Source: Mesotaenium endlicherianum (Eukaryota). Taken from it: DNA of 37,100 nucleotides. The stretch is taken from NCBI GenBank assembly GCA_009602735.1, contig WELA01000395.1:205199-242298 (forward strand). The letters are read 5' to 3'. Position 1 is the first letter of the stretch, and every line of letters starts with the position of its first letter. The notes under the pieces were generated by a model. It was not told the origin of the DNA. It searched no databases and worked only from the letters and a program-made list of their open reading frames with translations. A program made the translations under genes and the position numbers. Shown here in pieces: positions 2,529 to 37,067 of this stretch.

Positions 2529-3476
2529 GTCGTCCTCGTTGAGCTCTTTGCCGGCATCGCCACCGGGTTACTTGCGACCTTACAGGCCGGCATCCCGGTG
2601 CGCCGCTACGTCTACGTCAATCCCGATCCTGAGGCCCAGCAGGTGGCTCGTCGGCAGATGGCGTTGGGCCACGAGCGGTTCCCTGACCTCCTTCCCGCGC
2701 ACGCATTCCGCCGCGCTCAAACAGACTAGCCCATGGACATCCGCGACGTCACCGTCGAGCATGTCACCCGACTTGGGCCCATTGATCTCGTCATCGCCGG
2801 TTGGGAGTGCCAGGGCTTCTCCAGAGCCGAGCGTGGCAGGGCGCTCCGCAGTCCCCGCACGGCCCTCTTCTGGCACTTGCTCCGCGTCCTCAACATTGTT
2901 GAGGATCGCCAGCCGCCACACACACTCACGTGAGTCCTGGAGAACGTGGCCGCGCGCCACAATCCCCGTCCCGATGTAAGCGCCGACTTTGCTCTTTGCA
3001 GCAGCTACATCGGCCGCGAGGCCGTCATCGTCACTGTCCAGATTGGTTCCTTCGCGCACCGCGTCCGCGCCTACTTCACAAACCTGGCGATGCCAGGTAC
3101 TCTCGAGGCGTTGGCCGCCTCTCATCCACGTCACACACGCACCGTCGACTCCATCCTCGATGCCCCTCGTCTGGCCCAGCGCGTGACGGCGCTGTCGCAT
3201 CCCTCCATGGCGCAGTGTGAGGTCCTGCATGACGTCACTCGCGCGCTGCCAACTTTTGTCAGTCGCTACGACAGCGACGCCTTCGTCGGAGATCAGCGCG
3301 GGATGGTCATCGACCTGGAGACTGGCATGTTTGACAGGCCACGCCCTGCAGAGATGGAGCGTGCCATGGGCTTCCCGCCGCATCTCACGCAGGTGGACGG
3401 TCTCACTGAGGTGAACCGCATTCGCCTCTTGGGGCAGGCGTTCGACGCCAACGTCCTCACGTGGATTCTGCTGCAT
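2529..3476 (+). pseudogene. C5 cytosine DNA methyltransferase domain (DNMT3-like) embedded in the retrotransposon pol
   Basis: Manual translation shows, in order: motif I VLVELFAGIATG (ELF at 2541), DIRDV, motif IV IDLVIAGWECQGFS (Cys 2808), motif VI VLENV (ENV 2940-2948), motif VIII SFAHRVRAYFTN (~3048-3083), motif IX EMERAMGFPPHLT (3351-3389) and motif X RIRLLGQAFDANV (from 3417). Two in-frame stops (2727, 2931). Confidence 0.92.
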
Positions 3477-6340
3477 ACGCAAGCCTTGGCGCCTCTCTAC
3501 GCCGCAGCCCGGCATCCCGAGCTACCTCGACCTGCCGATGATATGGACGATGACTCCACCGACGATGACAATCAGACCCCGCCAGGCACGACGTGGCATC
3601 CTCAGCGCGCAGGGCCTGCACCACCAGCGCGCACCCGCCCCCCCTCCCCACCGCCGCGCGGGGAGGACTCTGGTTCGCTGGGGGGGGGCCGGCGGAGAGA
3701 GGAGTCCTCACAGCGACCCAGGGAGTCCCAGTCACCTGTTCTTTTTCCTCGCTCACAGGCAGACGGTGACAGGCAGCTGGCCGCAGCTCCCACAGTGCAG
3801 GTACCCGCGGCAGGCCGAGCGCCAACCGCTGCAGGGGAGGTGACACCTGCAGCACCACAGTCTACCCCAGCGGCAAAACAAGAGACTCCAGCTGCAGGCC
3901 AGGCGACGCCACCAGCTCCACCGATATGGAAGCTTGGGGGGACACTCACCAAGGCACAGGCTGCACAGTTGACGGCACTGCTGGATGGGAGGCGCAGCAC
4001 CAGCTTTGCCAGCGGCATGCACGATCTCGGGCGCTACAGGGGGGACCCCATGCGGATTACTCTCACGTCGCAGGAGCCCATTTTCCTGAAGCGTTACCGC
4101 TACAGCCACTTCGAGGATGGCTTGATCAGCGCGCAGACATGCAAGCTGGAGGACAGCCGGCTCATTCGGGAGTCCTCCTCTCGCTATGCCGCACCCACGG
4201 TCATGCCAGCCAAGAAGGATGCCTCGGGCAACTGGTCCGAGAAGAGGATGTGCGGTGACTATCGTAGGCTGAACGAGGTCACCAAGCAGGACAGATATCC
4301 TATGCCGACGCCTGACGAGATCTTTGATGACATTGGCACGTGCACTTGGTTCTCAGTGCTGGATCTGCGTCAGGGCTTCAACCAGATTCCCATCGCCGAG
4401 GAGGACCAGCATAAGACGGCGTTCTGGGGAGCACAGCGGCTCTACGAGTGGGTGGTGATGCCGTTTGGGTTGAAGAACGCGCCAGCTACCTTTCAGAGGG
4501 TGATGNCCGCGCCAGCTACCTTTTAGAGGGTGATGGACAAGGAGCTGGCCGGGCTGTCCTTTGCCCGATGCTACATCGATGACGTGCTCGTCTTCAGTCA
4601 GACGTTTGAGGAGCACGTGGCGCACATCACTGCTGTCCTGGACCGCTTGGAGGCCGCTGGGCTCAAGTGCCATCCAGGCAAGTGCACTTTTGGGACCCGC
4701 GAGGTGGAGTACCTTGGCCACCTGCTCTCCTCCAGCGGCTTGGCACCCCAGCTGGCGAAGATCTCGGCCATCACAGGCATCCCACCTCCTACAGATCTCT
4801 CGCAGCTCCGGGCCTTCCTCGGCATCGCCAACTACTATCGCCGCTTCGTGCCAGGGTTCAGCAAGCTAGCCAAGCCGCTCAACGACTTGCTCCGCAAGGG
4901 CGTTGCCTACGTATGGGGACCAGAGCAGCAGGCGGCATTCGATAAGCTCAAGGAGCTGCTGGTGAGCGCTCCTGTGCTTCGGCGTCCTGACTACGCGAAG
5001 CCCTTCATCCTCCACACCGACTGGTCGCAGGCAGGGCTGGGCGCTGTGCTGGTGCAAGAGCATGACGGCTTCGAGCATGTGGTGGCCTACGCCAGCCGCA
5101 GCAACAACCGCGCGGAAGGCAACTATGGCTCCTACGAGGGGGAGTGCCTAGCAGCCGTCTGGGCGATCGTGCACTTCAGGCACTATCTCTACGGCACGCA
5201 CTTTCGCCTGGTCACCGACCATCAGCCACTTAAGTGGCTCATGACGTCGGAGCGCTTGACCGGCAAGTACGCACGGTGGGCGCTTATCTTGCAGGAGTAC
5301 ACCTTCGACGTGCACCACCGTCCAGGCTCGACCAACCTGGATGCTGACGGTCTCAGCCGTAACCAGCTGCCCTCCTCGAGGGATCTCACTGTTGCCCGCC
5401 ACGATGAGGATGAGCCGGTAGCCTGGCACGCGGCGGCCTTCCTGGCCTTCACCACGGACGGCGAGGTGCGACCCGCAGGGCTCACTAGCCTAGACTTGGT
5501 GATGATTGAGCACATGTCCAAGAGGATCGAGCTCGTGCCCTTGCCCAGCAAGGCCAGTGAGGGGATCGCTCAGGCCTTCCTCAATCAGGTCCTTAGCCGT
5601 TTTGGCGGCTGCGCTGAGGTGCTGACCGACCAAGGCAAGGAGTTCCAAGGCAGCTTTCAGAAGCTGCTGGAGCGCTCTATGATTGACCACCGCACCACCT
5701 CCCGCGATCATCCTCAGGCTGACGGCCTTGCCGAGCGCATGGTGCAGACCGTCAAGCTAGGGTTGCGAAAGTACTGCCTTGCCCACGACCGTACCTACTG
5801 GGACGACGCCCTCCCTTGGCTGGCGATGGGGTACAGGTTCAGTAAGCAGGCCTCCCTGGCCTCGCACTCTCCCTACTTCCTTCTCTACGGCCGACAGCCC
5901 ATCCTGCCAGCAGCAGCCAGGACTGTGGCCGAGAACGTCTTGGACTTGGACAGTCCCGAGACATGGAGTGCTCTTATCGGGCAGCGTGCTCAGCTCTTTC
6001 GGCGCCTGATGCCCATGGCCATGGATAACCTCAGCATCGCACAGCATCGCGACACATTGAGGTACGCCATGACTCGTGGAGGAGCCTATCATCCCCGGGT
6101 GTTGCAGTTTTCCGCAGGTGACTTCGTGTACCTGCGACGCCAGACAAAGAACACCCTCGATACCAGCAGCTCGTCGGTCATCCTGCGCGTCAAGCGTGCC
6201 TTGGCGTCAGGCGTCCTGGAGCTGGAAGGCGCAGATGGCGGTCTTCACAAGGACCACACAAGAACTGTGGGCCGTGCCACCTTCCTAACCTGGACTTGCA
6301 GGTCCGTCCCCGCGACGCGCGGCCGCCCAAGGACTGGGCG

Positions 6341-6475
6341 TGCCAGATCTGTCACAACACTGGCCAGGAGGCCAAGATGCTGCTTTGCGACAGTTGCAAC
6401 CTCGGCTTCCACATCGGCTGCCTCGACCCGCCGCTGGCCCGCGTGCCCGCTGACGACTGGTTCTGCGAAGACTGC
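6341..6475 (+). other. PHD finger (C4-H-C3) at the integrase C-terminus
   Basis: CQIC...MLLCDSCNLGFHIGCLDPPLARVPADDWFCEDC; all eight zinc ligands present with canonical spacing. Confidence 0.95.
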
Positions 6476-6521: not shown

Positions 6522-6538
6522 GAGAGCTGGGGGGGGAA
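6522..6538 (+). promoter_or_regulatory. Polypurine tract (plus-strand primer) of the Gypsy element
   Basis: GAGAGCTGGGGGGGGAA at and just after the pol stop codon. It is followed by TT rather than a canonical TG LTR start. Confidence 0.6.
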
Positions 6539-6639
6539 TTAAAACATTTGACGCTTGACTCCCTTTTTGGCTATAAGGCCATTTGTATTATAGACTTCAT
6601 TGCAGCAAAGCCTGCTTGTCTATTGTGTGTTGCTTATGC

Positions 6640-7188
6640 CGACAAGGCGCACCCGATCTCTTAACGCACGACAACTCCCAGACCAAGGGCCGCCGTGTGG
6701 ATATTGTCTGCATGGCGAGAGAGTCGGCGGCGCGCACATTGCTGGATGTGGTTGTGGCCAATCCTCTCGAGGGTGGTATCGTGGAGTTGGCTTCATCTAC
6801 AGTAGGGGTGGCGGCGGCGATCAAGGAGAAGGCCAAGACTCTCAAGTACAGCGACACTCCAGTCGGCGACACCTTTGTCTCACTAGCGCTGGAGGTTTTT
6901 GGGACATTAGGCACCAAGTTCCACGACTTCCTCAACCTTTGCGCTGAGCGCACAGTCCCCCTCAGCTTCAGTGTCTCTAGTGACGATGCCGGTTACAGGG
7001 ACTTGGTCAACGCGATCAAGCGAGAGTACCGCCAGCTAGTCGATTGTAGTCTACAGAGAGCTCAGGCTTCTACCATTCACGAGCGTGCAGCTAGTGCCCT
7101 ATCTAGGACTGTGCATCGACCCCCAGTACCTCTCGTTTCATTTTCCCTTGCTGATGCCTTAGCAGTTCTCGGTCCTCGCGGTCTTTAG
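6640..7188 (+). mobile_element. 5'-truncated non-LTR retrotransposon fragment with a restriction-like endonuclease (RLE) domain, CRE/NeSL-like
   Basis: RRVDIV...LLDVVVANP...AAAIKEKAKTLKY...FVSLALEVFG...CSLQRAQA follows the R(P)D..D.V..P...E..K..KY...E..G...S.LQR pattern of RLE-clade LINE C-termini. No RT is retained; the 5' boundary is approximate. Confidence 0.8.
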
Positions 7189-8629: not shown

Positions 8630-11313
8630 ATGGGTGCCGATTGGGAGCCGAAACTGACAGTAAAGCTGCCTGTAAAAGCACCGAAGCAGGTTGCTGTTGA
8701 AGAACTTATCCAGCCAAGGTCCAGTGGCGATGACCTTGTCAAAAAGGCGCTCGCGAAGACGGGTTACGTGGTTGGTACTAGACTTGTGACGGATACAGGA
8801 AATATAAGGGACAGATTCAAGTTTGGGAAAGAGCTTGGCAGAGGTCATTTTGGTATCGTGAAGGTTTGCGAGGATCTTGAGACGGGAAAGAAATACGCCT
8901 GCAAATCAATACTGAAAGCCAATTTGAAGGTCAGTAGCATGCTATTGCTACAACTTTGGATGTGCCATGACTTTGTGGTGTCACATCATGAAAAAAAGTT
9001 GTTATGGAAGCTTTTGAGTTGTTTAGTATGTGATCCATCTTTTACGTATACTGCATGTACAATATTGCGACGTTGATTTGACTTCGTCATTTCAAGCCTC
9101 AGAGATGTTTCATATTTTGATTTGGTCTGTCTTCACCATGTCCTTTTGGCGTTCCTCACAAGGACTTCTATGCTCTGGAAGGACCTTGTTTTGTAGCCCC
9201 ACTGCAGTCCAGTATCGAAGTTAATATAGTGATGGCTGCGAGTCAAATGGAAGGAGTGTGTGTTCTCCGACTGTCAACGAGGGCTGTTTTGTCATTAGAA
9301 GGGGATGAAGCAGGGCCAGCATAATTTTTTTTGTTTGGCAATGGGTGCATAGTGTAGGAAGGTTCATGTCATGGTTGTAAGTATGCACCCACATGACCTA
9401 CTGCCTTTGCTTGACTCCATGTCATGTTTTGTTATGCCTCGCAGAAAAGGGAAGAGTTGGATGAGTTGCGAGCTGAAATTGAACTTATGAGGCATTTGAA
9501 AGGGCATCCACACATTGTTGAGATGCATGCTCTCTTTGAGGATAAGGAGGCTGTCCACCTTGTCATGGAGCTGTGTAAAGAAGGTGACCTCTTTGATTAC
9601 ATTGCCAGGAGGAGAAGACTAGTTGAAGGAGATGCAGCCCGCATTTTCAGGTATGCCATTTTTGCGTATGATGTATCTATGTGTTTGCTCAATAGTCTTT
9701 TGATGGTTTTATGTGCTGTAATTGTACGCGCAGTCCCTCTCTTGGCAATATGCATTTGTGTTGACATTCATTTTCTTACCTGTTGTCACTATGCAGGCAA
9801 ATCGTACTAGCTGTGCAACATTGTCACGCTAGAGGGGTTATTCATCGAGATTTGAAGCCTGAGAACATCATCTTTGAGGAAATCGGTGACGAGTTCCAGG
9901 ATCCTCTTGTGAAGGTTGCCGACTTTGGGCTTGCAGTAATGCCAGAGCCTGGGCAAAAAGCATCAGGGTTGGCAGGAAGTCCATTTTACATGGCTCCTGA
10001 ACTTGTGAGACGGGAGAAGTATGGTACTGAAGTTGACATATGGAGCATGGGTGTTGTGCTTTACACTGCCTTATCAGGTATAGAGAGGCACTATTTGTTG
10101 CATTTCATGACTCCGTTTTTTGGATAACCTCAGTGTTGGTACTTCGTTTTTGCATGTATGTGCAACATGCTATATATTGCATATGATGAGGGGTCTGATT
10201 GGGTAGCTTGGTAACATTGTTGCTAGCACTTATTGTGGGAGTGAGAGTGGTCACTCACAGGAGATGTGTATGTAGTGCAAGGTTGTCATTGCCAGCTTTG
10301 GTGGCTTCAGTTGAAGGGCACCATTGACTGCAGTTCGTAATATTGTTTATTGATAAATTTATGTGTTTTGTCGATGTGCAGGCTTCTTGCCTTTCTGGGG
10401 CAAAGACCATGAGCAAACTTTTGCTGCAGTTCTGAAGGCTGAGCCAGATTATCTGAAGAAGCCATGGCCCTCGGTATCCAGGGAAGCAAGGAGGTTAGTG
10501 CGATGGATGCTTCATGTAGATCCTAAGAGGCGCGCTACCATAGATGACATCTTGAGTAATCCCTGGTTGATGCAGCACTGTAGTCCCACAAAGGCCAAGG
10601 AGCAGCCTTCCAAATTCTCCTTTCTTTCAGGCAAAGGTGGTGCAGCGGCAGTCGCGCAATTGCCGACTCCTCCGGCTAGTCCCAATCCTCTTTCTGCCAG
10701 AGCAGTGGGTGCTATACAACCAATCCCTCCGTTTAAGCCCTCACATCAACGCGTTCCCACCCCTCCTTGTACGAGCCCATCTGCGTCCGGGGTTGGATAT
10801 GTTATCGCTGGGCCTGGACCTGCTACTGACATTCCTGTACACAATCAGGCAACATATGATCCTGTTCCACCTCCAACCATTGCACCACCTTCTCCTTCCA
10901 GCAATAGCTTCCTTCAGAAGTTATCTAACCTACATCCTTTTGGGCAAGCTGCCCCTAAGGCACAGTATGGTGGAACGCCCCCTGCCTCACCACGTTCTCC
11001 CAAGACGCCTACGTTTGCCTTTGGGAAGAAGAATCTATATGCGCTCTTTAACTCGCAGCCGCAGGAGGCACCCAACAGGCATGAGCTTGTCATGCAGAGG
11101 CCTATTGACAAGCTCAAGGGAGTTATGCCTGCTGAGGAGTTCATACCCCACAACAGTCCGAACTCCTCACCTCCCCACAAACCTGGTGCCTCTGCACTGG
11201 TTGGAAAGTCATTTCACAGGATGGAAAGCCCCAGATCGCCCCTGGAGGAGTCCATTTTCCCTATGTCGCCGAAGTTGAGAAATTATGGCTATGAAGGTAA
11301 AGGAGGTTGCTGA
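8630..11313 (+). CDS. CAMK-group Ser/Thr kinase, PEPKR/CDPK-related, without EF-hands; exons 8630-8929, 9445-9650, 9797-10077, 10382-11313 (572 aa)
   Basis: LGRGHFGIV, ACK, HRDLKPEN, ADFGLA, GLAGSPFYMAPE, DIWSMGV. Three GT-AG introns with matching phases (0, 2, 1). Pro/Ser-rich C-terminal tail. Confidence 0.93.
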
Positions 11314-12711
11314 AGTAGGAACATGACGGCATGTGTTCCTCTTGCTCACGGAAGTTTTTTTCATGGACGGTAGCATAGGCAGGCCTGTGCCTATCATGGC
11401 ACTTGAGGCGGCTGTCGTTCTCCGTTCAGTTTAAGCTTCTCATCCAGATGAGGGGTTAAGGGGTGTATTATAGAACATCAGCAAGATCTACACAACATAG
11501 TTTTACTTTGAACGTTGCGCTCTTAACCTTCAGATCTACTGGGTTGGCTTCTCAAGCTGGCCAAGTAGGCTAGCTAGCTTTCTATAAGTGATTCCTTTTG
11601 TCCATGAAACAGGTCTGATGGAGGTTTCATCAGGAAGTAAGAGAGGCAGTGTATATAGATTATAAATGACATGGAAGCAGTGGAAGTAGGCTAAAGATAA
11701 GGATTTCAAGTCAGGCAAAGTTAAGGTATCAGGAGTGTAGGAATGTGGGCAATAGCAGTATTATCGGTTCGTCTAGTAACTTGGAGGTTATAATTCGTGC
11801 CATTATGCGGTAGTCACAACTGCCAGCCACCCGGCATTCGGGTTATTTGTTGGCATGACCTTGCAATTTACACCAGGGTTTACTGCCCTAAGTATATCCA
11901 ACGTTTTTGAAATTGTCGTGACAGTTTTTGAAGGTGTATCTGGTTCCCATTTCCATGCACCATATTTTCCCCAATGGTTGATCGGGTCATGATCTATGTA
12001 CTGTGAAGAATATACCCTTGCAATTGATGTGTACACTGGCAGAAAGGGATAAACTTCATCTGTTGTCGTGGACTGAATGTCCTGGAGCAGTTGCAGATTT
12101 GCACTCCAGCAGTTTGCCACTGACTGCTTCAACAGGACTTGTTTGACATTTATTCCATCTAGTGTCTTAAAGCATCTATCCCTGCCAAGACTCTTGCAGT
12201 GAGAGTGCATGGCTAACAATTCAAGTTCCTTCGCAAATTTAGCTGTGCAGATTAACAACTGTAATAATAACTGAAACTGTAAGCCCCCTCACTATTGGTA
12301 CAGATGGTACAATAAATGAGTCATGTTAAACTTAAGAAGATTTGCTGAACACTGTACCCTCGTGCAATGTGCCTCTCCATGTTTCTGTTCAACTGGATTC
12401 AAGACTTTGTCAATCCTGCACGTACTTTAGCAGCAGGTCTCCCGCAGGCAAGCTTTGACAGGTTTGAGATTGAAGAGGTTGCGCCACTCTGAAATACAGC
12501 GGGAAATCAAGGATGGTGTTGTGATTAAACATATATTATCCTATGTGACAGTTGAGGCCTACAATCAAATTTCACTACTGCACGTATGACATTGTTCAAA
12601 GGCCGGGTGCTTTCGCTCAAACTTTTGTTTTCTATTTGACTCCAGGAGCTAAGCAGATCAAATGAGGACCCCAAGACCAAACGTGCACACATGTATGTGC
12701 AGATTTTGAGC

Positions 12712-15435
12712 CTAATATTTGGTCTTTGCAGGGTCGTTGGGAAACTGCCTGAAGTTAATGAAAGGGGCCCACAGCAAGAGCCTGCACACCATCAATATCG
12801 GTGTATACAAACAAATATCAATACATCAAGATAATTAGCACGGTATGAACATGTGCCCCGCAACCAGGTGCCCACACCCGACTTACACGTCATTCTCCTG
12901 TATATTCCAAATTATGAGCCCCAATGGACACGTCACCAAAGAAGTCACGGCAGGACGCCAGGTGGCTGCCATCTGGTCGCAGAAAGTCAGCAAAAGGTGC
13001 AACTCCGATGAGAAACTTCACCCACTCCAATGCTACAGCAGGGCGACGAGGCTTCAAAGAGCTTTCCTGCGACTTCGAAACCTCGTCTCAACATCTAGCG
13101 TGTCATTCAGATTCTTTGCCCAAAGCCTACACCGAACCTCCACCCATACCTGACCACAGCCTACCTCACAGCCTTCCCTCATTCCCAAGCCTAGACCAGC
13201 TCTAAGGCTAGTACCTGTACAGCATCACCAGCTACCTCTTAACGACAGCCCAAACGTCCAATGTCATTAATCAGAGAAGGATCAGAGCGGAGGCAGGAGG
13301 CCCGGGATTTGGCCCACACGAAGGCCTAGCCCCATCCCCATCTCAAGCCTGCCCCACCAGCATGCTGAATCTGCCCCAACCGCGTGCAAAGTTGACCTCA
13401 GACCTCAGATTTCACCTCAAATCTGAGCCAGCCCCAGAATAGGTCTGGTTCCGAGGCTATTTTCCATTGAGGGGGGCGAGGCGAGGAGGGGGTAAGTTGG
13501 GGGGNNNNNNNNNNNNNNNNNNNNNNNNNNNNNNNNNNNNNNNNNNNNNNNNNNNNNNNNNNNNNNNNNNNNNNNNNNNNNNNNNNNNNNNNNNNNNNNN
13601 NNNNNNNNNNNNNNNNNNNNNNNNNNNNNNNNNNNNNNGGGGGGGGGGGGGGGGGCAACGTACGCTGGGAAGCAGAGGAAGACAAACATGAACTGGAAGT
13701 ACGTCTCCAGGGTGCCCCTCTTGTACCAGCGCACGCGCAGGTAGTTGTACACCAGAGGCTGCTCGCCAGCACACATGCACGCACGCACACACACATGCAC
13801 GCACACGCACACGCACCCACAGGAGTAGAAGACAGCATCAGGGCTTTGGTGCATGCGGCGTAAGATTCCTAGTGCTTGTCGGTTCCCAGTGCTCGTAGGT
13901 CCTAGGGCCCCATGGTCCAAGTGCAGGCAAAGGGAGAGGTACACACGCACATCAACATGCACATGCACATCCACACGCACACACACATGGACAGAGACAG
14001 CTGTGCCCAAGGAGCTGACACTGGCCGCACATTGAGCTATTTATTGCAGACGCCTGCGAACCACCTGCTGACGAGCGCACGCGCACGCAGGGTTGGGAGT
14101 CCCGGGCTCCCTTGGGGTTGCGGCCCACGATTCAGGCAAGTGCAGATGGGGTTGCGGCCCCCACAGGCACTCCTTCGCGGTTTCAAGAGAGGAAAGAGTA
14201 AGAGCGGACAAGCTGAACACGACGACTGCCGCCGATTGCCGAAAACTCTTTGCGTTTTTGCAGGAGGGGGGCAGGGCTTGAAGGTTGGATTGAGCGAGCG
14301 CCAAGGTGGTTCGGATACGGGTTTGAAGAGGTGCCGAGCTCAAGAGATAGGATTGGACTGACGTCAGAGCTTGGGTGCGTGTGCGTGCAGGCTGCTCTGG
14401 AAGAGGGTTGGAAGAGGCCAGGTAACCCCTAGGGCTCCTTTGAGGATAAGAGAACAAGGGCTAATCACTTCTGGCAGGCCTTCTTTGAGAGAGTTTTTGA
14501 AAAAGAGAGAGTTCGACAAATCCGCGGGCACAGAGAGAGCTTGGAGCAGTCACAAGCGGGTGCATGCTGTCGTCTACATCTGCCACGCCATCGCCGTCGA
14601 CTTCAAACATACTTTTCTCATGAGAGTAGTTCCGACACGCCCTGATCTGCAGCAGAATGCAGTCAGCACTGCGGGGAGCGTGGGCCTGCCCCTTGTGACC
14701 CCCCGCTTGCGTCACCACTAATCGTTTGCGCCACCACTCAAAGTTTGGGCCCCACCACTCAACGTTTGTGCCTCACCACTCAACGTTTGCACCATCACCA
14801 AGCATTTGCATCACCACTAACATGCGGGACTGGCACGTGCTCAAGGGCAGTCGACCAAAGGGGAGGAGTTCAAGCCTGACCTAAAGTACGAGAGAAATGC
14901 ACGCATGGCATGGGTGAGGGTGTGCGGTATATTGAATATCACAATCACACGTCATCCGTTTTCTGCCGATCGTGAACCAGGACAGGGAAGGGAAGGGGAA
15001 GGGGCTTTGGGGCATCACAAAGAATGCGACGGAGCAAGGGGCAGGAAAGCGGAGGACCTTTTGGGCAGCACCAAAAAAGTGGCCGAGGGGGAAAAGAGTA
15101 AGAAGGGGCTTACGTGCAGTATCCACGAGTCTAAAGTTGAATGAGAGAAGAGAATGGACGAGAGCAGCCACGGGCAGGCAAAAACTGTAACAAGTCGTGG
15201 GAGAGAGGGGACGAAGGCAGTGCTCTTGCGGGCAGCGAAAATAGAAAGCGACACAATGGGGAGTGGCCAGGGAAAGAAGACAAGGAGAGGAAGGAGGTGC
15301 TTACGGGCAGCACAAACAAGTAGACAAACACTACGGCGCCAAAGGCAAGCACGGAGTCCACGAACTCGGCATCTGTCAGCTGCCCGTCCACCGCGTCTGC
15401 CAGCGCGGGCGCGCAGCTCACCAGCGCCTGCCACG

Positions 15436-15512
<77 letters not shown>

Positions 15513-15548
15513 NNNNNNNNNNNNNNNNNNNNNNNNNNNNNNNNNNNN

Positions 15549-15602
<54 letters not shown>

Positions 15603-17502
15603 TTAAAGATATGGTTATTGCAGGCTATAGAACGAATCATGTATAAACACGTGTTCTTCAGTGATTGGTGCGCAGCTTGCCAGCACCTGCCACGCACAGA
15701 GACAGAGAGAGAGAGAGAGAGAAGCACACAAGTAAAATTCGATACCTGAACAGCAAGGCCGAGGAACGCGCAGCCGGCTACCGTTGCGCCGCTTGGCAGC
15801 CCGGCTGGCTCTCCAACCTGCGCAGAAGAAGGCAGAGAAAAACTCAAGTCAACAATTACAGCCCGGTCAACCGGCCCAGTAAACTTGCCAGTCAACTGGG
15901 TCAACCGAGTAGGCTCCGCTGGGCTCCACATAACAAATGGCAGGCTTCTCAGTCGCTCGAGAAAAGAAAGGAGTCTGCCACTTGTAATGCAGCAGCAAGT
16001 TAGACTCACAAACGGCAGCTTAGCTAAGCGCCACATGTCCTTCTGAGGCCAGCTCAGCCTCTGGCAGAGAAGTCCTTTTAATGCTCTCTTTCTCAATGTG
16101 ACCTTAGCCACATGCGCAAACAACAGTCCCCTCCCCTTTTTCGTCCTTCTGTAGCAAACATTGGCCATGCCACACGTATCGTACCCTCTTGCTACTGTCT
16201 TGATCTTTTAACTCGTCCCCTCCGATGCTGTGCCCCTTCACCTTTCCCCTCTGCCTCCTCTTTCCTCTATTCCCGTCTCCCAAGACCTCCACTCACAACT
16301 CTAGGTCTCACCAAGCACAAGACCAAAGAACGGCCGAGGGTTCTGCCATTCTGAACATGAATGTTAGCATGACACTGTAATGTGTTGTTGCTGTCCTCCC
16401 TTTCCCCCTCTCCCCCCCCCCCCAACCCCCCACCTTCCTCATCTTTCCTGTCGCAAGTGTACAATGTGCATAGAAGTTTCCATACTGTACAAACCAAGGG
16501 AAACGTCGTCAATACAGCACTCAGAGGTCTTCTGTGTACGTTACCAAACAGTCGAGTTACATGTTTCTCCCCACACCACAACTCCTCCGCACCCCCTTCC
16601 TGCCGCCGTTCTGCCCCCCCCAGCCCCTCTCGCCCTAAGACTGGCGGAGGGCACTAGAACCTCCTCCTTGCTTTTGCTTCTCAGCAGGTGTCAAGAGGGT
16701 CTGCAATAATGTGAATCACTTCCTACCTCAGCAGCAAGCCTTTCTTCGTTCTCTGGTAGAGCCTGGGCTGCAATGGTCACGCGTCCAGTAGCAGCAGGCT
16801 CGCTGTGCATCCTCGTCTGCAGCCCTAACGTGTGACCTGTTGCAGCAGCAGCAGCAGCAGCAGCAAAAGCAGGAGGAAGAAGAGGTCGTGAAGAAAAGGC
16901 CACATTAGCAAAGGCAAAGACAGAGATGGAGAAGGAGGACGGTGAAATGCAGGCGGAGAGGTAAGATCAAGAGGGAGAAGTGGTGGTGTAGCAGGTCCCA
17001 TATTACCCCAAAGCGGCTGTTTAAATTGGCTATCAACTGAGATAGGGTTTACTTGCATGTGATGTGCCGTATGTGAAAGGCGCCTCATTCACCATAGACT
17101 AGGAGCAATAACAGGATCCAGTGACTACTGCCTTCTGAAGATGCTGCGACCTCGGCAGAATGCAACTGCTGGAATAACATTACAGTACACTGTCAACCGT
17201 AAGGGGAACGTCTAGCTTCGGCTGTGGTGAAGATGATCTCGTACAGGTATAGGTGATCTCATACCGGTGCCAGGGTCTAACATTTAGGGTCAAAATCTCG
17301 GTACAGAAAGACAAAGCTGTTAAAGCAAACCCAAGGATGGCGTACCAGAGCATCTTCGAAGACTTCTTACACGCAGCCCGGATACTCGGAAGCTCACAGC
17401 TCCTGACGAGCTTTTCACTTGTCTCGATTCACCGATGGAGTTTGTTCCCTTCAAGCTGAGCCCACCAATCAGGCTGCATTGTGCAAGACTACATGCAGCC
17501 AT
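12712..17502 (-). CDS. ndhL: Chloroplast NDH complex subunit L. Confident exons 15817-15746, 15427-15305, 13758-13664, 12781-12712; probable 5' exons 17502-17346, 16836-16727, 16102-16010
   Basis: The spliced product YLFVLP|PLVYNYLRVRWYKRGTLETYFQFMFVFLCFPA|LLLWAPFINFRQFPNDP matches plant NdhL/CRR23. Splice phases are consistent. The first exon MAACSLAQCSLIGG...RVRSLRRCS is Ser/Arg-rich like a transit peptide. The 5' exons are less certain. Confidence 0.88.
14713..14820. repeat. Degenerate ~19-21 bp tandem repeat (CACCACTCAACGTTTG core) in an ndhL intron
   Basis: About five to six consecutive CACCAC...TTTG units. Confidence 0.75.
15439..15600. repeat. (AG)n microsatellite with an internal N gap
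   Basis: Perfect AG run on both sides of the gap; on the minus strand it forms the polypyrimidine tract of an ndhL intron. Confidence 0.98.
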
Positions 17503-17990: not shown

Positions 17991-18468
17991 CGTCTACTGT
18001 TGGGTGAACGACGCAGGGTGACGTACTCTGCACGGAAAGCGGTAAGCTTGGCAACAGTAGGTCAGAAGAATACTTGGACCGTCATACGGACGCGATGTGA
18101 GCAGGACCTCACATGGTTACACATAAGCGGTCAACGTAGTCAATCTGAATCAGTGCATTTGGGCGGCCTGAGCAGGCATGGCGGGCATGAGGTTTGATGA
18201 GTTCCAACTTTCAGAGAGGTGGTCAACAGCGGTATGCTATGACCCACTAATTATATGGCCCCATCTGGCCCAATCTGGCCCCATCTGTTGCGCAAAGTGG
18301 GATGCAGGCATGATGCAGGCGTACGCCGGCGGTTCCTTTGCGTACCTCATGGCTACAGGGGAGTGTACCATTCAAATTAAATATAGATGTATTTTTACTT
18401 AATTTGCATGCGTGACAGCAGCTTCTGGGCGACGTTGAAATAACATCCATGTAGTGGTTCGTCATCGG

Positions 18469-18840
18469 CGGGGACGCAAAACTGGCTTCAAGTGGGGGGC
18501 ACGCTAACTCCTGCTTTTGGGGGAACGCTAATTATATATAGTGGACTTTTAGTCGGGGCACGCAGGTTCGAGTTTGGGGGCACGCAAAACTTGTTTCAAA
18601 GTGGGGGCACGCAGAATCCGGATTTTGGGGGAACGCAAAGTGGACTTTGATCTATATATGTATATAGTGGGAGCATACATGCATGCAAGATTCAGGTTTG
18701 GGGGCACGCAAAACTGGCTTCCAGTGGGGGGCACGCAAAATCCGGTTCTTGCAGGAACGCAAAGTGAACTTCTACTCGGGGCACGCAAAGTTTGGGTTGG
18801 GGGCACGCAAAACTGGCTTTAAGTGAGGGGCACGCAAAAC
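18469..18840 (+). repeat. Array of about 13 GGGG(C/A)ACGCAAA motifs with higher-order periodicity, probably DNA-transposon subterminal repeats
   Basis: The motif mostly recurs every ~22-27 bp, with recurring spacers AACTGGCTT..AGTG, AATCCGG and AAGTGGACTT. Confidence 0.8.
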
Positions 18841-19814
18841 GCAACATGAACTCATTTATGAACCGACTGTTCCCAATGGTTCCCAACGTCCACTGCAAGT
18901 TTCAACCACGACCTGTAAACTTGCTCACGCCTAATCACGAGAAAAGCTGATCGCGAGAGCATCTCGCTGAACGAATCATAGTCTGTAGAAGTACTCAATG
19001 TCACTTACATCTTATACTTTTGTCTCAGAAGACTAACTTTTCTTACATTTCAGGCTGCACTGACAATTGTTGGTCGGTCCAGGAACGTGAGAGTTTTAGT
19101 GGAGCATTCAGTTGACATATATAGACCTTCCATGGTGGCCACTTGTCATGTCTGAAAGACTTTCATCCGAGAAATAATTTGTTTCAGTTGATCAGGTCAT
19201 TCAAGTGTTCGTGCTCCGCTAACGAACATGGGGGACGATGGTATGTGCATACGACTAGACCTCCGTAAAACTTGATGGAAGCAGGCATGAAATAGTCCTT
19301 CGATTTAGACTGAGTCCGTGCTATGTGCAGAGCACTATCTGAAGGGTCAGTGGTGACGCTTGTAGGAAGTGAAAGATTTTTATGATCATTTCAGACCTGT
19401 TTGGACTTTGCTCGATATGGTCACCCCACATGCAGCAGTTTCATCAGTCCTATTATCGAGGTCTCCTTTTTCGTTATACAGACCCGATATACTGTCTGGT
19501 GCATGAATTAGCGGACTGGCATTGAGTCAAAAGATGCACAAATGTTGCTTCAAACATTTACATGGCTAACTGAGCCTTAAAGAGGTCTTTGCAACAAATG
19601 CATCACGCATTGTGCTGAGTGTAGGGCAATACTTACAAGTTGGGTCAGCATGTCCATCTGCGAGTAAGTCCCTGTGACAACTGAGGCAGCAGACTCCAGG
19701 AGCTTCAGGGATTGAGCTACTATGAGAAGCTAAGCGGTTCTAAACATTATGTTCTAAAATTATGTCTCAACTTTATGTTCTGAACAATATTTCTCGTAAC
19801 CCTTTTTGACAGGG

Positions 19815-22505
<2,691 letters not shown>

Positions 22506-24402: not shown

Positions 24403-25821
24403 ATGGCGGCTGAAAATAGCAATATGACGTTGGATATTAGTGCCGCTGCCTCTGGCGGTTGTCTCGCTCTGCACGCAATGCAGAGAACGCTAGTTGCCTT
24501 AATTAGCAACAAATCACATATCAGTCAACCAGAACACGACCTGCCTGTGTATGGCCCACCCACTCTGCTCAAATAGCAACGGACTGCAATTCTAGCCTCG
24601 TCCGTTGCGGGCTTGTTGGTTGTTGTCAATTCGATCATGGATGAATCCAGCGAGCTGGACAATAAGATCAATGACCTTTTTCGCACAGTCAACACTAGTA
24701 TGTGGTACATCAAGCCTCGCTCTACCCACTGGCATCACTTCATGAAAGAAGTGGTCGCAGAAGAGGATCCAGCCAGTTGGGCTCATCATTTTCGGGTCAC
24801 TGTTCCATTCTGGAGGAAACTCTGTCAGCAGTTGCATGACAAGATGGTTACTCACACACCTGAGTCTTTCTCCCTCATAGATAACAGAGTTATCGATGTG
24901 CAGACAATGGTTCTTGTAGGCTTGTCTAAGTTTGCCACTGGAATGTCCTACAAGTGGTTGTCGACTTGCTTTGGACTTGGCAAGTCTACCGTCATTAGAA
25001 TTGTGGACAAGTTTGCCACTGCCATATGTGAGGAACTAGGCCACAACCTCTCCATGCCACGCGAGGGACAGGCATTGCAGGATGCTATAGAAGCTAATTT
25101 TGCAGTGAAGGGTTTTCCTAATTGCGTTGGTGCCTTAGATGTCACCCACATCCAGATTCAGCTGCCTAACAATGTAGATGCAAGGGCATACATTGACAGG
25201 AACAAGAACTATAGCATCTCCCTACAGGCAGTGGTAGGCCAAAGTGGCCTCTTCTTTGACTGCAATGTTGGCTGTGTGGGGTCGATGCACGATGTGCGCA
25301 TTCTCCGGCGCTCGTACCTATGGGCACAAAATGCAGGGCATAACAGAATGTTCAGGGGACCCGCTATACGCATTGGGGATGTGGATGTTCCCCCATTCAT
25401 CATTGCAGATGGGGGATATCCCTGTGATCATTGGCTGGTTGTTCCCTTCCGTGAGAGCTTGCGCAACCCCCTCACTCAGCAGCTCAGAGATTTCAATTCC
25501 GCCCTCTCTTCCACTCGCATGATAGTTGAGAGGGCATTTGGGACTCTCAAGCAGACATGGCGCATGCTTGGGGGTAGAGTAAATCAGCCATCTGCAGTTG
25601 GCCGCCTTGAGCGTCAGATTTGTGCTTGCTGCATTCTGCACAACATGATGATACTTGAGAATGTAGACCCCTTGTTCTACGAGCGCCAAGAAAGGGGAGA
25701 AGATATTCTGATGCCTGAGCCGCAGCCGCAATTTGTCCCCTTTGGCCCCCCTGGAGATGAATTTGAGCATATTCTTGAAGATCAGGTTGCAGGGACAGCC
25801 TTAAGGGAGGCTATTTTTTAA
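24403..25821 (+). pseudogene. PIF/Harbinger (HARBI1/ALP1-like) DDE transposase
   Basis: NCVGALDVTHI, NYSISLQAVV, GSMHDVRILRRS, IIADGGYP, TRMIVERAFGTLK, CACCILHN. An in-frame ATG at 24403 is followed by a premature TAG at 24574; the catalytic part 24613-25821 is open. Confidence 0.92.
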
Positions 25822-33332: not shown

Positions 33333-33582
33333 CACACCGAAATGGGGAGTACGCAAGAAGAGTTGGCTGAGGTACGTGAAACGAGACGCCGTGGGGTACG
33401 CGAGAAGAGATGGAAGGGGTACGCGAAGGGAGACGCCGTGCGGTACGCGAGAAGAGATGGCAGGAGTACGTGAAGGGAGATGTACGCGAGAAGAGATGGC
33501 AGGGGTACGTGAAGGGAGTCGCCGTGGGTACGCGAGGAGAGATGGCAGGGGTACGTGAATTAGGAGGCAGGGGTACGCAAAG
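33333..33582 (+). repeat. Array of about 11 GGGGTACG(C/T)GA motifs; two more copies at 23628-23660 on the other side of the Harbinger
   Basis: Units alternate GTACGCGAGAAGAGATGGCAGG and GTACGTGAAGGGAGACGCCGTG. Confidence 0.85.
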
Positions 33583-34182: not shown

Positions 34183-37067
34183 ATGGCGTTTCCTTATCTG
34201 GAAGCTATTATAGGTAGGTACACTCTTTGAGTCTTAAGCTATCCTATTTGCAACGTTCATTGGTCAATCGCGTTTGAAGGTCACTTTTTTGACGGGTCAC
34301 TGCCAAGTCACCACAGTACCCTCTTGTCATGATTCGAAATAACAGGGAGATTTTGCATGCTTTTCTTGGGATGAGAAAGTTAGGCTACTATGCGTATGGA
34401 AGATTCTTGCCATGTCCCATAGGACGTCTCTACTAGCACATATTCCAAGTCATCACAACACCTTTACTTTTCTCACCTATAGAGAGATCGTCATACAAGG
34501 CTTTATTTGGAATGATGCAACTAGTTGATGTTTGAAGAGTTGCAGGGGTGTATTTGAAAGAATTAGGGGCCTGCTGAGGTAGGAAGGTCAGCATGATTCG
34601 TCCACTCTTACTTTTGAAAATAATTGTCATCCACATACTCACAAGCCCAAGCTTCCAGTCCCTCTATGTGTGGTTGTTCCTGTGTCAAACCACCTCAATG
34701 GTTGTAAATATATGAACCAAGAATTATCAACCCCCCAAGCCTGCGCAGTTGACCATGTTCCAAGTCCTCATCTTCGCTCATATTTACCAATCTGTTTCTA
34801 GTCACCTTGCCTCTGTTGTTGATGTAATTTTGTAGGATATGCGTGTGCCCTTATTGACGATGTTGGCGTCCAGTTGTCCTCTTTGCATGAGCGGAGACGG
34901 GTGGCAGTCTGTAGAGGCGGTGGCACCTTTTTGTTGGACTGAGGCTTTAGGGGCACTCCTTTATCAGCTTAGCTACAACGTACATGCTTTTTGGGTAATA
35001 AAAATCCAGAACCTAGTGACAGAGTTGGGCTCGACTCTCATTCACACTCGTATCATTTATACTTATATGCGCCTCTAGTATCTTTATCATGGATATTTTT
35101 TGGGAATCATTTGTGGACCACTGGCAGCCAGGTCATCAGGGCGCATGCTCCTTGAGCTACTGCTTCCTCGCATGCAGTAAGGATTGGGAAGGGTTTAGCC
35201 TGGGTTTTTGAATCCACTCACCATGTGCATCAAGATGGTGCAACAGAAACTGGGGTTTCAGCATCGGGTTTTTGCCTTCGCCGATCGCAGCTGGCAAGCT
35301 ACAGGAGTGCAGGAGATGTCAAGTGCTTACTTGCATAGCCGGCCTGCTGTGGCTACAAGAGTGCAAGGGTTTTGGGATGTCACTTGCTCTCTTGAGGAGC
35401 TGAGCATGTTACAGCTACAGGAGAGCAGGGGTTTTGGGATGTCAAGGTGGTCGCTTCTAGCTGACAGAAAGTTTGCAGGAAGCTTGGGTTTTGGTGCGTC
35501 AAGTTTGCAGGAAGCTAGGGTTTTGGGGCGTCAAGGGAGGGATTGAGTGGTTGGTCACCTGCAGCTGATGTGTGGATCTAGGATTAGTGCAGAGCGCTCT
35601 GAGGCTTTGGGATGTCAGACGAGGATTCACTTGGTGGCTTGTCGCTCATAGAGTCTTCTGAAGTGCCAGGGTTTTGGGATGTCGGAGGAGGGTCCAGGTT
35701 GTTGCTTGCTGCTGAGGGGAAGTCGACAGGAGTGCCGGGGTTTTGAGATGTCTAAGAATATTTTGCCGCGGGTGATGGGTTCTAGGTTGCTGCCATCAGC
35801 TGTATAAAGAGCTGGCCAGCTGGCCTGCTGGGAACGTAGGGGTGATGCCTCCTGAGCTAGAGCCCAGAGCTTAGTACTGCTACCTAGCCACACGTTATGC
35901 ATGCTGCGTCAGGGTTGGTGTCATGGTCGGTGTCAGGGTCGGTGTCAGGGTCGGTGTCTCAAGTCGGCTATCGGTGGGTCCATCAGAGCAGCTCCAACAT
36001 CTCAGCATACATCAAATCTCGACTCTCACGCCAACTTTTCTGCGCAGTGTCAGTGCGCGCTATCTGTATGCTTTTTTTTCCTCTTTCAAAAAAGCATGTC
36101 TACACTCGATGAACATGACCCTCCGACAAACGCTGTGCCATGATGGGATGCGTCCACACGTGCATGGCTGATGGCTGTCAGGGTTTTGTAATGGGTGATG
36201 CGTGCGCTCTCAAGTGCTGCAACCTTTCAAGTGACGCGCCCGTGACCTTTCCATTCTGCCGCCTGTCACCCTCTATGGTGGCGGCGTGTGCGCTCACATG
36301 CTTACATCTGCAAGTGCTGATCGTATCGAGTGACGTACGTGTTTGCCGTTTTCTCTGTCCCTTTCACCTGACGTATGCCTATGCGTGCGCTGCCTGTCCT
36401 CGTCGTGTCCCCGTCGACTCCCAGGCTTTGTGGTGGTGGCGTATGCGTTCGAGACGGCGCTCGACTTGCGGCAGCACAGGGTGCTGGGGGGGTCGTCGCT
36501 GCCGCCCGTGCTGGAGGGCGTGGTGAGCCGCGAGAAGTTCGAGCGCGCGCGCGCGTACGGCCTCGACAAGAGCCGCTTCCACTTCCTGCACGCCGCCGTC
36601 AGCTTCGGGGAGGACCTGGCAGTGCTCTCGCTCAAAGTGCTGCCCTGGGTGTGGGGGGTGCGTGCGACTCCTTTGCCTTGTCTGCCTTCCTCCTCCGCCT
36701 CTGCCTTGGCCTCCTCATGCTCTTCCTCCCCCTCGGCCTCGGCCTCGGCCTCTGCGCCTGTCTGCCCTTTCTTCTTCATCCTCTGCCTCCGCGCCTGCAT
36801 CTGCTTCTTTACTTCCTCTTTTTGATGATTGGGGTTCCGTGTTGACTTGTGCCCCCCCCCCCTCCCCGGGGTTTGGAGGGGAAGTGAGGTTGTGAGGTTT
36901 TTTTTCATTGTCTTTGACGTGTATGTTGATTCGTCTGTGGTATCGATGGTCCCCGGTGATGATGCGTGCAGATCAGCGGGGGGCTGCTCCAGAAGTGGGG
37001 CTACTCCCCCAACAGCGAGATTCTGCAGACCCTGCTCTTCCTCACCATCTGGTCCATCGCCAACCAG
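34183..37067 (+). CDS. STE24: CAAX prenyl protease 1 (STE24/FACE1), 5' part; exons 34183-34213, 36425-36657, 36972-37067; continues beyond the window
   Basis: MAFPYLEAIIG|FVVVAYAFETALDLRQH...VSREKFERARAYGLDKSRFHF...LPWVWG|ISGGLLQKWGYSPNSEILQTLLFL matches the plant STE24 N-terminus. Splice phases are consistent. Confidence 0.92.
35295..35755 (+). repeat. Degenerate dispersed repeat (GGGTTTTGGGATGTC core) in STE24 intron 1
   Basis: About seven copies near 35368, 35429, 35486, 35518, 35602, 35669 and 35738, with variable spacers. Confidence 0.7.
35912..35958 (+). repeat. 12-bp tandem repeat (GGGTCGGTGTCA) x ~4
   Basis: gggttggtgtca tggtcggtgtca gggtcggtgtca gggtcggtgtc. Confidence 0.85.

Follow-up and report, generated by a model that had tools for sequence, protein, structure and literature searches.

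Organisation of the locus

The window analysed here is a 37,100-nucleotide stretch of the Mesotaenium endlicherianum genome, and its left end is occupied by a Gypsy retrotransposon. The remainder holds a spliced Ser/Thr protein kinase gene (8631-11314, CpG o/e 0.46), which we take to be CDPK-like, NdhL subunit exons on the minus strand (13417-14040, E 2.5e-10), a four-exon guanosine deaminase gene (19812-22505), an intact-looking frame for a PIF/Harbinger-type DDE transposase (24577-25821, PF13359 E 3.8e-32) and CAAX prenyl protease exons on the plus strand (36334-36825, E 1.1e-12). The last guanosine deaminase exon (22317-22502) was 100% identical over 62 residues to jgi/Mesen1/10117/ME000075S09623, the next-best match reaching at most 89%; the other three exons matched the same protein. 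Three small degenerate repeat arrays were composed of units containing GGGGCACGC (18456-18839), GTACG (33349-33572) and GGGTTTTGGG (35352-35753). A TatC match at 15134-16207 was below the cut-off, adjoined a GA microsatellite and was set aside.

The domains of the retrotransposon lie on the plus strand in the order protease-DNMT-RT-RNase H-integrase-PHD. The 5' end of the element, its repeat A and gag lie outside the window, gag being upstream of the retroviral-type aspartic protease (86-373, PF13975 E 1.3e-7). A long Pro/Arg/Ser/Thr-rich linker continues the protease frame (374-2469) with one in-frame stop (2009-2011), and sibling contigs from runs X5 and X6 cover this region. The linker spans about 700 codons, compared with about 110-140 in relatives, and contains repeated TP, RS and TPPYDD-like units; a 21-nt tandem duplicate within it (509-550), with no n adjoining, was absent from the X5 and X6 contigs. 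The C5-cytosine methyltransferase (DNMT) domain (2529-3476) is joined in frame to the reverse transcriptase (RT) by a stop-free linker and RT N-terminal region (3477-4235), and the stretch between 2495 and 4505 is free of n. There follow the RT itself (4236-4721, YIDD, PF00078 E 4.6e-15 and 1.5e-10), RNase H (4914-5300, PF17917 E 2.1e-37, PF17919 E 5.1e-35), a DDE integrase core (5495-5714) and a C-terminal PHD finger (6341-6475, PF00628 E 1.4e-12). The PHD finger resembles those of KMT2D, UHRF1, KAT6A, KDM5 and BAZ2, many of which read unmethylated H3 tails.

The order protease-RT-RNase H-integrase with a DDE integrase is that of Ty3/Gypsy elements. Neither the window nor the relatives scanned gave a tyrosine recombinase match, and an rve integrase and a protease were present. 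Membership of DIRS/PAT/Ngaro was ruled out by the DDE integrase, which stands in place of a tyrosine recombinase, and membership of the chromoviruses by the PHD finger, which stands in place of a C-terminal chromodomain.

At the right end of the copy, a polypurine tract (PPT) of eight G (6529-6536) directly precedes terminal repeat B (6537-6673), which ends in CACGACA; a G-run followed by B was also found in relatives. Depth dropped after about 6670, and contig loose ends fell exactly at 6537 and 6673. The plus-strand flank (6674-7188) is a different repeated sequence, with a depth of about 700-1450 in run X1, and is the apparent insertion target of the element. Its repeated open frame gave no Pfam match; we assume that it resembles the endonuclease end of an R2/CRE-type non-LTR retrotransposon. 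The Gypsy copy appears to be nested in this repeat.

The window copy is dead. Two nonsense stops interrupt the DNMT domain, a frameshift near 6259 leaves the PHD finger out of frame with the integrase, and a deletion at about 5495-5500 cuts the integrase core, which matched PF00665 over profile positions 27-102 only. The copy lacks the H2C2 zinc finger and profile positions 1-26 of the core, both carried by relatives, and the Pfam profile search of the window gave no match to PF17921, which is present in relatives. Sibling contigs had loose ends at 5495-5502 in runs X1, X5 and X10. Compared with its siblings in X1, the window leans to A and T (A>G 86 and T>C 81, versus C>T 40 and G>A 31). Such transitions within the element made up 25 of the 40 listed places (403 in all), 12 in CG, 8 in CHG and 5 in CHH contexts, where the availability of these contexts was 29, 24 and 47%, respectively. 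This pattern fits host methylation and decay. Neither the dead state of the copy nor the permuted ends of its family, described below, figured in the first-pass annotation of this DNA.

The pol frame contains a DNMT3-like methyltransferase domain

Six C5-methyltransferase motifs were found in order in a single plus-strand frame starting at 2496, as the first-pass annotation had claimed: motif I (LFAGIATG, 2544-2567), with the SAM-binding motif kept; motif IV (AGWECQG, 2796-2816), with the catalytic Cys kept and E replacing the usual P; motif VI (ENV, 2940-2948); motif VIII (AHRVRAYF, 3054-3077); motif IX (EMERAMGFP, 3351-3377) and motif X (RLLGQAF, 3423-3443). The motifs are thus unpermuted, and they share the frame of the RT, the open frame from 2934 running into it. 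The earlier annotation attributed the splitting of the domain to two stops and to an assembly overlap. The two stops are there (2727-2729 and 2931-2933); the overlap is not inside the domain, as the single n that marks it (2494) sits just upstream.

For profile and structure-database sequence searches, the stops were read as X. Searched in this way, as had been proposed with the original annotation, 2529-3476 matched PF00145 with an E value of 2.5e-6 and 27.6 bits, above the cut-off of 22. The likeness to DNMT3 was borne out by both sequence and fold. Human DNMT3A was the top solved match by sequence (E 2.4e-14), and the predicted model of the domain (pLDDT 72.4, pTM 0.80) matched DNMT3A in Foldseek with an E value of 8.3e-15. 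The best solved structures were DNMT3A, B and C, ahead of DRM, DNMT2 and HhaI, and the profile search gave E values of 1.5e-23 for DNMT3A, 1.8e-8 for DRM2, 1.3e-6 for DNMT2 and 2.5e-6 for HhaI. Aligned with DNMT3A, the domain retained the catalytic Cys, the Glu of ENV and the arginines of motif VIII. Prokaryote-type enzymes scored as high as DNMT3A (66 bits versus 56.6), and phage matches were 22-30% identical among the 15 of 79 records listed. Unpermuted motif order and fold are common to the window domain, host-type DNMT3 (human DNMT3A/B structures and plant DNMT3) and phage DNMT3-like methylases; the window domain differs from host DNMT3 in its identity of about 24%, in having neither a PWWP nor an ADD domain and in WEC at motif IV. 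These results confirmed that the region is a DNMT3-like C5-cytosine methyltransferase domain inside a Ty3/Gypsy pol frame.

The DNMT-RT fusion is present in sibling copies and relatives

Two single-n scaffold joins flank the contig that carries DNMT and RT. The join at 2494 lies within a 24-nt exact duplicate (2470-2518) and shifts the protease side relative to the DNMT frame by 25 nt; contigs from three of four runs (X5, X6 and X10) left out these 25 letters. The join at 4506 lies in a near-duplicate (27/29 nt) that holds a stop (4524-4526), and its 30 letters were left out in contigs from two of four runs (X5 and X10). Because the contigs of other runs lack them, we read both joins as scaffolding overlaps, the first of which explains why protease and DNMT are offset in frame. 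The joins, together with a DNMT3 encoded by the host (PMC12344493, supplementary table, as far as accessible), could suggest that the assembly is chimeric, or that a retrocopy of the host DNMT3 happened to insert into one element. Several observations argue against either. DNMT and the start of RT form one gap-free stretch in the window. Sibling contigs from three runs crossed the 2494 join, and one X5 contig spanned 1606-3473 with 63 differences in 1843 letters. As many as 4672 contigs of run X1 mapped to 7.4 kb of the element region, and the family is therefore abundant; in the same run, the DNMT segment was repeated about as deeply as RT. For 3576-3997, no bridging sibling contig was found among those listed, and depth was present there in three of four runs.

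The same arrangement was found outside the family. A metagenome scan returned 276 relatives, the best 80 of which were used as loci. RT lay 3' of DNMT in 57 of the 60 loci with room for it, protease lay 5' of DNMT in 60 of 65, and in none of the 80 did DNMT directly follow RT or RNase H. Two Closterium proteins (P0006 and P0003) carry DNMT and then RT, RNase H and integrase in a single chain. Collectively, the data indicated that the DNMT-RT fusion is real and not a chimeric assembly, which we consider, like the retrocopy, highly improbable. The position of DNMT between the protease and RT of a Gypsy pol likewise held, since Pfam domains flank it in the window and the order is common to relatives.

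The DNMT domain is widespread in streptophyte elements and shows purifying selection in relatives

Long homologues were found in Closterium, where gag, DNMT, RT, RNase H and integrase occur in one protein, and in Mesostigma. The Sphagnum fallax gene model KAH8931579.1 contains a protease-like region and DNMT, and locus L011, with a DNMT 89% identical to that of Sphagnum, carries all domains from gag to PHD. A profile search gave 443 representatives at E values up to 1e-30. Among the best 150 of these, DNMT stood before RT in 6 and after RT in 46, and RT was not detected in 98; the motif IV Cys was present in 127 and EN[VTA] in 130. Where scanned, members of the DNMT-after-RT group (P0008, P0128, P0141, P0143, P0148 and others) had the domain between RNase H and integrase, mostly with a PHD finger and some with a G-patch.

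The 16 elements with DNMT before RT, including the window, formed one split with a support of 0.93 in a 63-tip tree of RT. DNMT and RT distances were correlated (rho 0.62, 0 of 999 permutations), a value inflated by near-duplicates. In a DNMT tree of 71 tips, built without host DNMT3, the window branched deep with weak support. The DNMT-after-RT group was nested inside this tree, and the domain has therefore moved or been exchanged at least once.

The dN/dS and target-duplication tests were made on relatives 33-41% identical to the window in DNMT, and not on the window's own family. DNMT dN/dS was 0.09-0.26 in 8 of 13 pairs between relative subfamilies; of the others, three close-copy pairs gave 0.38-0.99 and two were saturated. 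RT values for the L028 pairs were excluded, as they were apparently inflated by misalignment. Judged by these substitution ratios, DNMT was shown to be under purifying selection in relatives.

None of the 80 loci had a stop-free frame spanning DNMT motif IV and the RT YxDD, because of decay and a shared stop. This stop, followed by CAR, lay between DNMT and RT in 13 of the 28 relatives that have both in one frame (for instance L005 at 4509, L008 at 4661, L009 and L011 at 5083). Four of the 13 were exact UAG-CARYYA and nine were CAACCC, and the L011 stop was the sole in-frame stop over 6.9 kb. There is precedent for CARYYA (PMC4132726, accessible text). The site would likely act as a leaky stop that places DNMT on the Gag side; neither the window's family nor the L020 family has it.

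The ends of the element are permuted

Nine relatives were full-length. Five had the layout A-ORF-PPT-B-NN-A-B and four had A-ORF-PPT-B. Repeat A begins with TGTCAYG and repeat B ends with CACGACA, giving a conserved junction CACGACA-NN-TGTCAYG. The more relaxed form CAYRACA-NN-TRTCAYG was found in 10 of 80 loci, which span families that share no other likeness in A and B. Immediately outside the two ends, the 4-bp flanks of the nine loci agreed at 27 of 36 positions (0 of 100,000 permutations), and were identical in four of nine (p 0.0003); L017 was the one full-length relative of the nine with no target duplication. The relatives therefore have the TG...CA termini and a target duplication in the 4-6 bp range of Ty3/Gypsy elements, and the window holds the CA end only. 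Troyka, considered as a candidate Gypsy with split repeats, was ruled out by TG...CA termini and the 4-bp duplication, since its termini are CG...CG, its duplication is 3 bp and it is described from animals only (PMC12440569, accessible text).

The features of ordinary Gypsy ends, namely two identical LTRs, a PPT before the TG end and a tRNA primer site, were not found. The PPT abuts B and not the TG end, the second B starts at the same base as the first, and of the 16 sequences that follow A, none started with the TGG of a tRNA-type primer site. On sequence grounds, the element is a non-canonical Gypsy with permuted ends and the PPT before B. The 2-nt spacer at the junction was GC, AC, AT or GT (L006, L017, L020, L029, L058, L062, L069, L008 and L011); all of these are reachable from GC by deamination, so the original junction would be the near-palindrome CACGACAGCTGTCAYG. 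At the 3' ends, 11 loci ran from B into A, and 14 loci (about 11 distinct flanks) stopped after a single B; the short and full forms are thus similarly frequent.

In the window's own family, one X5 contig ran past 6673 with GC-TGTCATG, and eight contigs from two runs entered 6537 from a similar sequence that is not the PPT. These junctions at 6537 and 6673 indicated that the family shares the permuted layout, the window copy ending after one B. The complete A-coding-B-A-B layout was seen in five relatives, and in the window's family via junction loose ends only. A search for the start of repeat A in the window gave two one-mismatch matches, which is chance level.

A circular intermediate may account for the permuted ends

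We propose that the window holds a decayed copy of a Gypsy element whose working relatives likely package DNMT, likely methylate new DNA with it and likely insert from a circle. We regard this as reasonably probable, and as the best explanation of what was found, namely which domains occur and in what order, the many copies of the family, the decay of this one and, in relatives, purifying selection on DNMT, permuted repeats and target duplications of 4 bp. Transcription would start from repeat A, and the polyprotein would be cut by the protease. During reverse transcription, priming of the plus strand at the G-rich tract would give a cDNA bounded by B-NN-A. The cDNA ends would then join to form a circle, and the DDE integrase would cut the internal CA-NN-TG junction and insert the element. 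Joining the ends of a B-NN-A cDNA and cutting at one CA-NN-TG site yields exactly A-ORF-B-A-B, which would be the product of a two-repeat circle; A-ORF-B, the form of the window's right end, may reflect a one-repeat circle, direct cutting or subsequent recombination.

The permuted ends might instead arise from linear cDNA through an unusual template switch, with an RNA ending in the second B, no circle and the same role for DNMT. The A-to-B junction was nearly precise in six of six copies of one family, as such a switch could also produce, and no circle was seen. The position of the PPT and the common start base of the two B repeats are, however, what a joined cDNA end would give. A second family had three forms of the A-to-B junction, one of them with filler DNA, and this heterogeneity fits end joining. 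The two nucleotides that separate CA from TG, in turn, fit a staggered integrase cut. We therefore give the linear route a minor share of the probability and retain the circle as the preferred reading.

Possible roles of the methyltransferase

Conservation of the catalytic residues and selection suggest that the enzyme is active and is delivered together with RT. Its simplest target would be new cDNA or the fresh insertion. Processing of a retroelement polyprotein by its protease locates a fused domain beside the cDNA. The window's element showed no CpG depletion (o/e 0.93, with 1.10 in the DNMT part), compared with 0.56 in host exons; relatives were CpG-poor (0.28-0.79), which host silencing explains equally well. 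Because host exons are CpG-poor, as under gene-body methylation, a new copy bearing CG marks could look host-like. In the proposed cycle, DNMT would methylate CG on the cDNA or the fresh insertion, which would come to resemble the CG-methylated gene bodies of the host, and the PHD finger may guide integration through recognition of histone H3 tails. For the host, DNMT1, CMT, DNMT3 and DRM are listed in the accessible supplement of PMC12344493. According to the accessible text of PMC5890265, CG methylation in yeast was obtained with related DNMT3 domains from DIRS elements, and the Klebsormidium Gypsy domain gave no methylation there, a result its authors call inconclusive.

That domain without activity in yeast (PMC5890265, accessible text) would also agree with a DNMT kept for binding and not for catalysis, acting through DNA or RNA binding, cDNA shielding or competition with host methyltransferases. 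The lack of CpG loss from the element is consistent with such a role, as is motif IV, where the window and 63 of the best 150 of 443 representatives have WEC instead of PC. Yet WPC occurs in 43 of these 150, the SAM-binding motif I is kept, and the window retains the catalytic Cys, the ENV Glu and the motif VIII arginines, the first two of which are kept in most representatives. We consider a binding-only role unlikely.

Alternatively, DNMT may be active and selected for a target other than its own cDNA, namely insertion-site chromatin, competing elements, viral DNA or self-restraint. No erosion of CpG was seen in the element itself, and the stop-CAR found in 13 of 28 same-frame relatives would give DNMT in Gag-like excess. 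Against this stand the window's family, which has no stop between DNMT and RT, and the fusion into a protease-processed polyprotein, which puts DNMT beside the cDNA. Options of this kind have been raised in PMC5890265 (accessible text) and PMC6338049; for the present elements they seem quite unlikely to us, and action on new cDNA or the insertion remains the preferred role.

In its most extended form, the proposal would be that a streptophyte-wide Gypsy lineage, from Mesostigma through zygnematophytes to mosses, integrates routinely from a circle pre-methylated by DNMT3, through a DDE cut of the CA-NN-TG palindrome, so that insertions look like CG-methylated gene bodies. We offer this generalisation tentatively and at present rather doubt it.

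Comparison with known elements

The charophyte precedent invoked by the first-pass annotation exists. KnitGypsy-Dnmt3 of Klebsormidium nitens was described by de Mendoza et al. 2018 (PMC5890265), and its accessible text reports DIRS-like repeats, so that this kind of element is already known. As in that element, the window has an intronless DNMT3-like domain in one Gypsy pol ORF with RT and RNase H, in a charophyte host. The DIRS-like, A-coding-B-A-B repeat arrangement and purifying selection on DNMT, both described for KnitGypsy-Dnmt3, were found in relatives. The present elements differ in their zygnematophyte host and in having relatives in Closterium, Mesostigma and Sphagnum; target-duplication length, the CA-NN-TG junction, PPT position, the PHD finger and the leaky stop do not appear in the accessible text on KnitGypsy-Dnmt3 (PMC5890265). 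No K. nitens retro-DNMT was found among the named homologue matches. The Mesotaenium family is thus a further KnitGypsy-Dnmt3-like element, placed by the published description, and not a new class: the suggestion that it might be uncharacterised stands for the family itself and fails for the kind, known since 2018 (PMC5890265, accessible text).

Streptophyte DNMT3-bearing elements are mentioned, with hosts unspecified in the accessible text, in PMC12344493 and bioRxiv 10.64898/2026.05.21.726589; the accessible parts of PMC6317226, PMC10952607 and PMC11982613 do not mention Gypsy-DNMT3 elements. An opinion paper (PMC6338049) gives DNMT3-bearing elements as absent from land plants such as tracheophytes. 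In a literature search that left subscription journals outside, we found neither a report of Gypsy-DNMT3 in Mesotaenium, Closterium or moss nor a permuted-end mechanism for such elements. The present data widen the range of Gypsy elements with DNMT3 beyond Klebsormidium, to the sister group of land plants among the algae and, by way of the Sphagnum homologue, to a land plant. Their added value lies in this streptophyte-wide range and in a testable model of integration from circles. The host is cultured and the family abundant, so both the targets of retrotransposon DNMTs and the use of circles as a normal LTR-element substrate can be tested. Standard LTR finders would also easily overlook elements with such permuted ends.

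SymbioDIRS-Dnmt3 of Symbiodinium likewise has a DNMT3-like domain in pol and A-coding-B-A-B repeats, and its de novo CG methylation was shown in yeast (PMC5890265, accessible text). It uses a tyrosine recombinase, whereas the present element has a protease and a DDE integrase, with 4-bp target duplications in relatives. The EpiLTRs of Cymbomonas and Euglena are also Gypsy-like, and combine a cytosine methyltransferase with a chromatin reader (bioRxiv 10.64898/2026.05.21.726589, accessible text). Their DNMT is sister to DNMT4 and accompanied by an adenine methyltransferase and a chromodomain, and the same source states that they are distinct from streptophyte Gypsy-DNMT3. The closest parallel to the proposed integration step is foamy virus, whose DDE integrase cuts palindromic 2-LTR circle junctions (PMC1180852, accessible text). 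There the junction is made by the joined cDNA ends, whereas here CA-NN-TG would lie inside the repeat, and its cutting would give the permuted integrated form.
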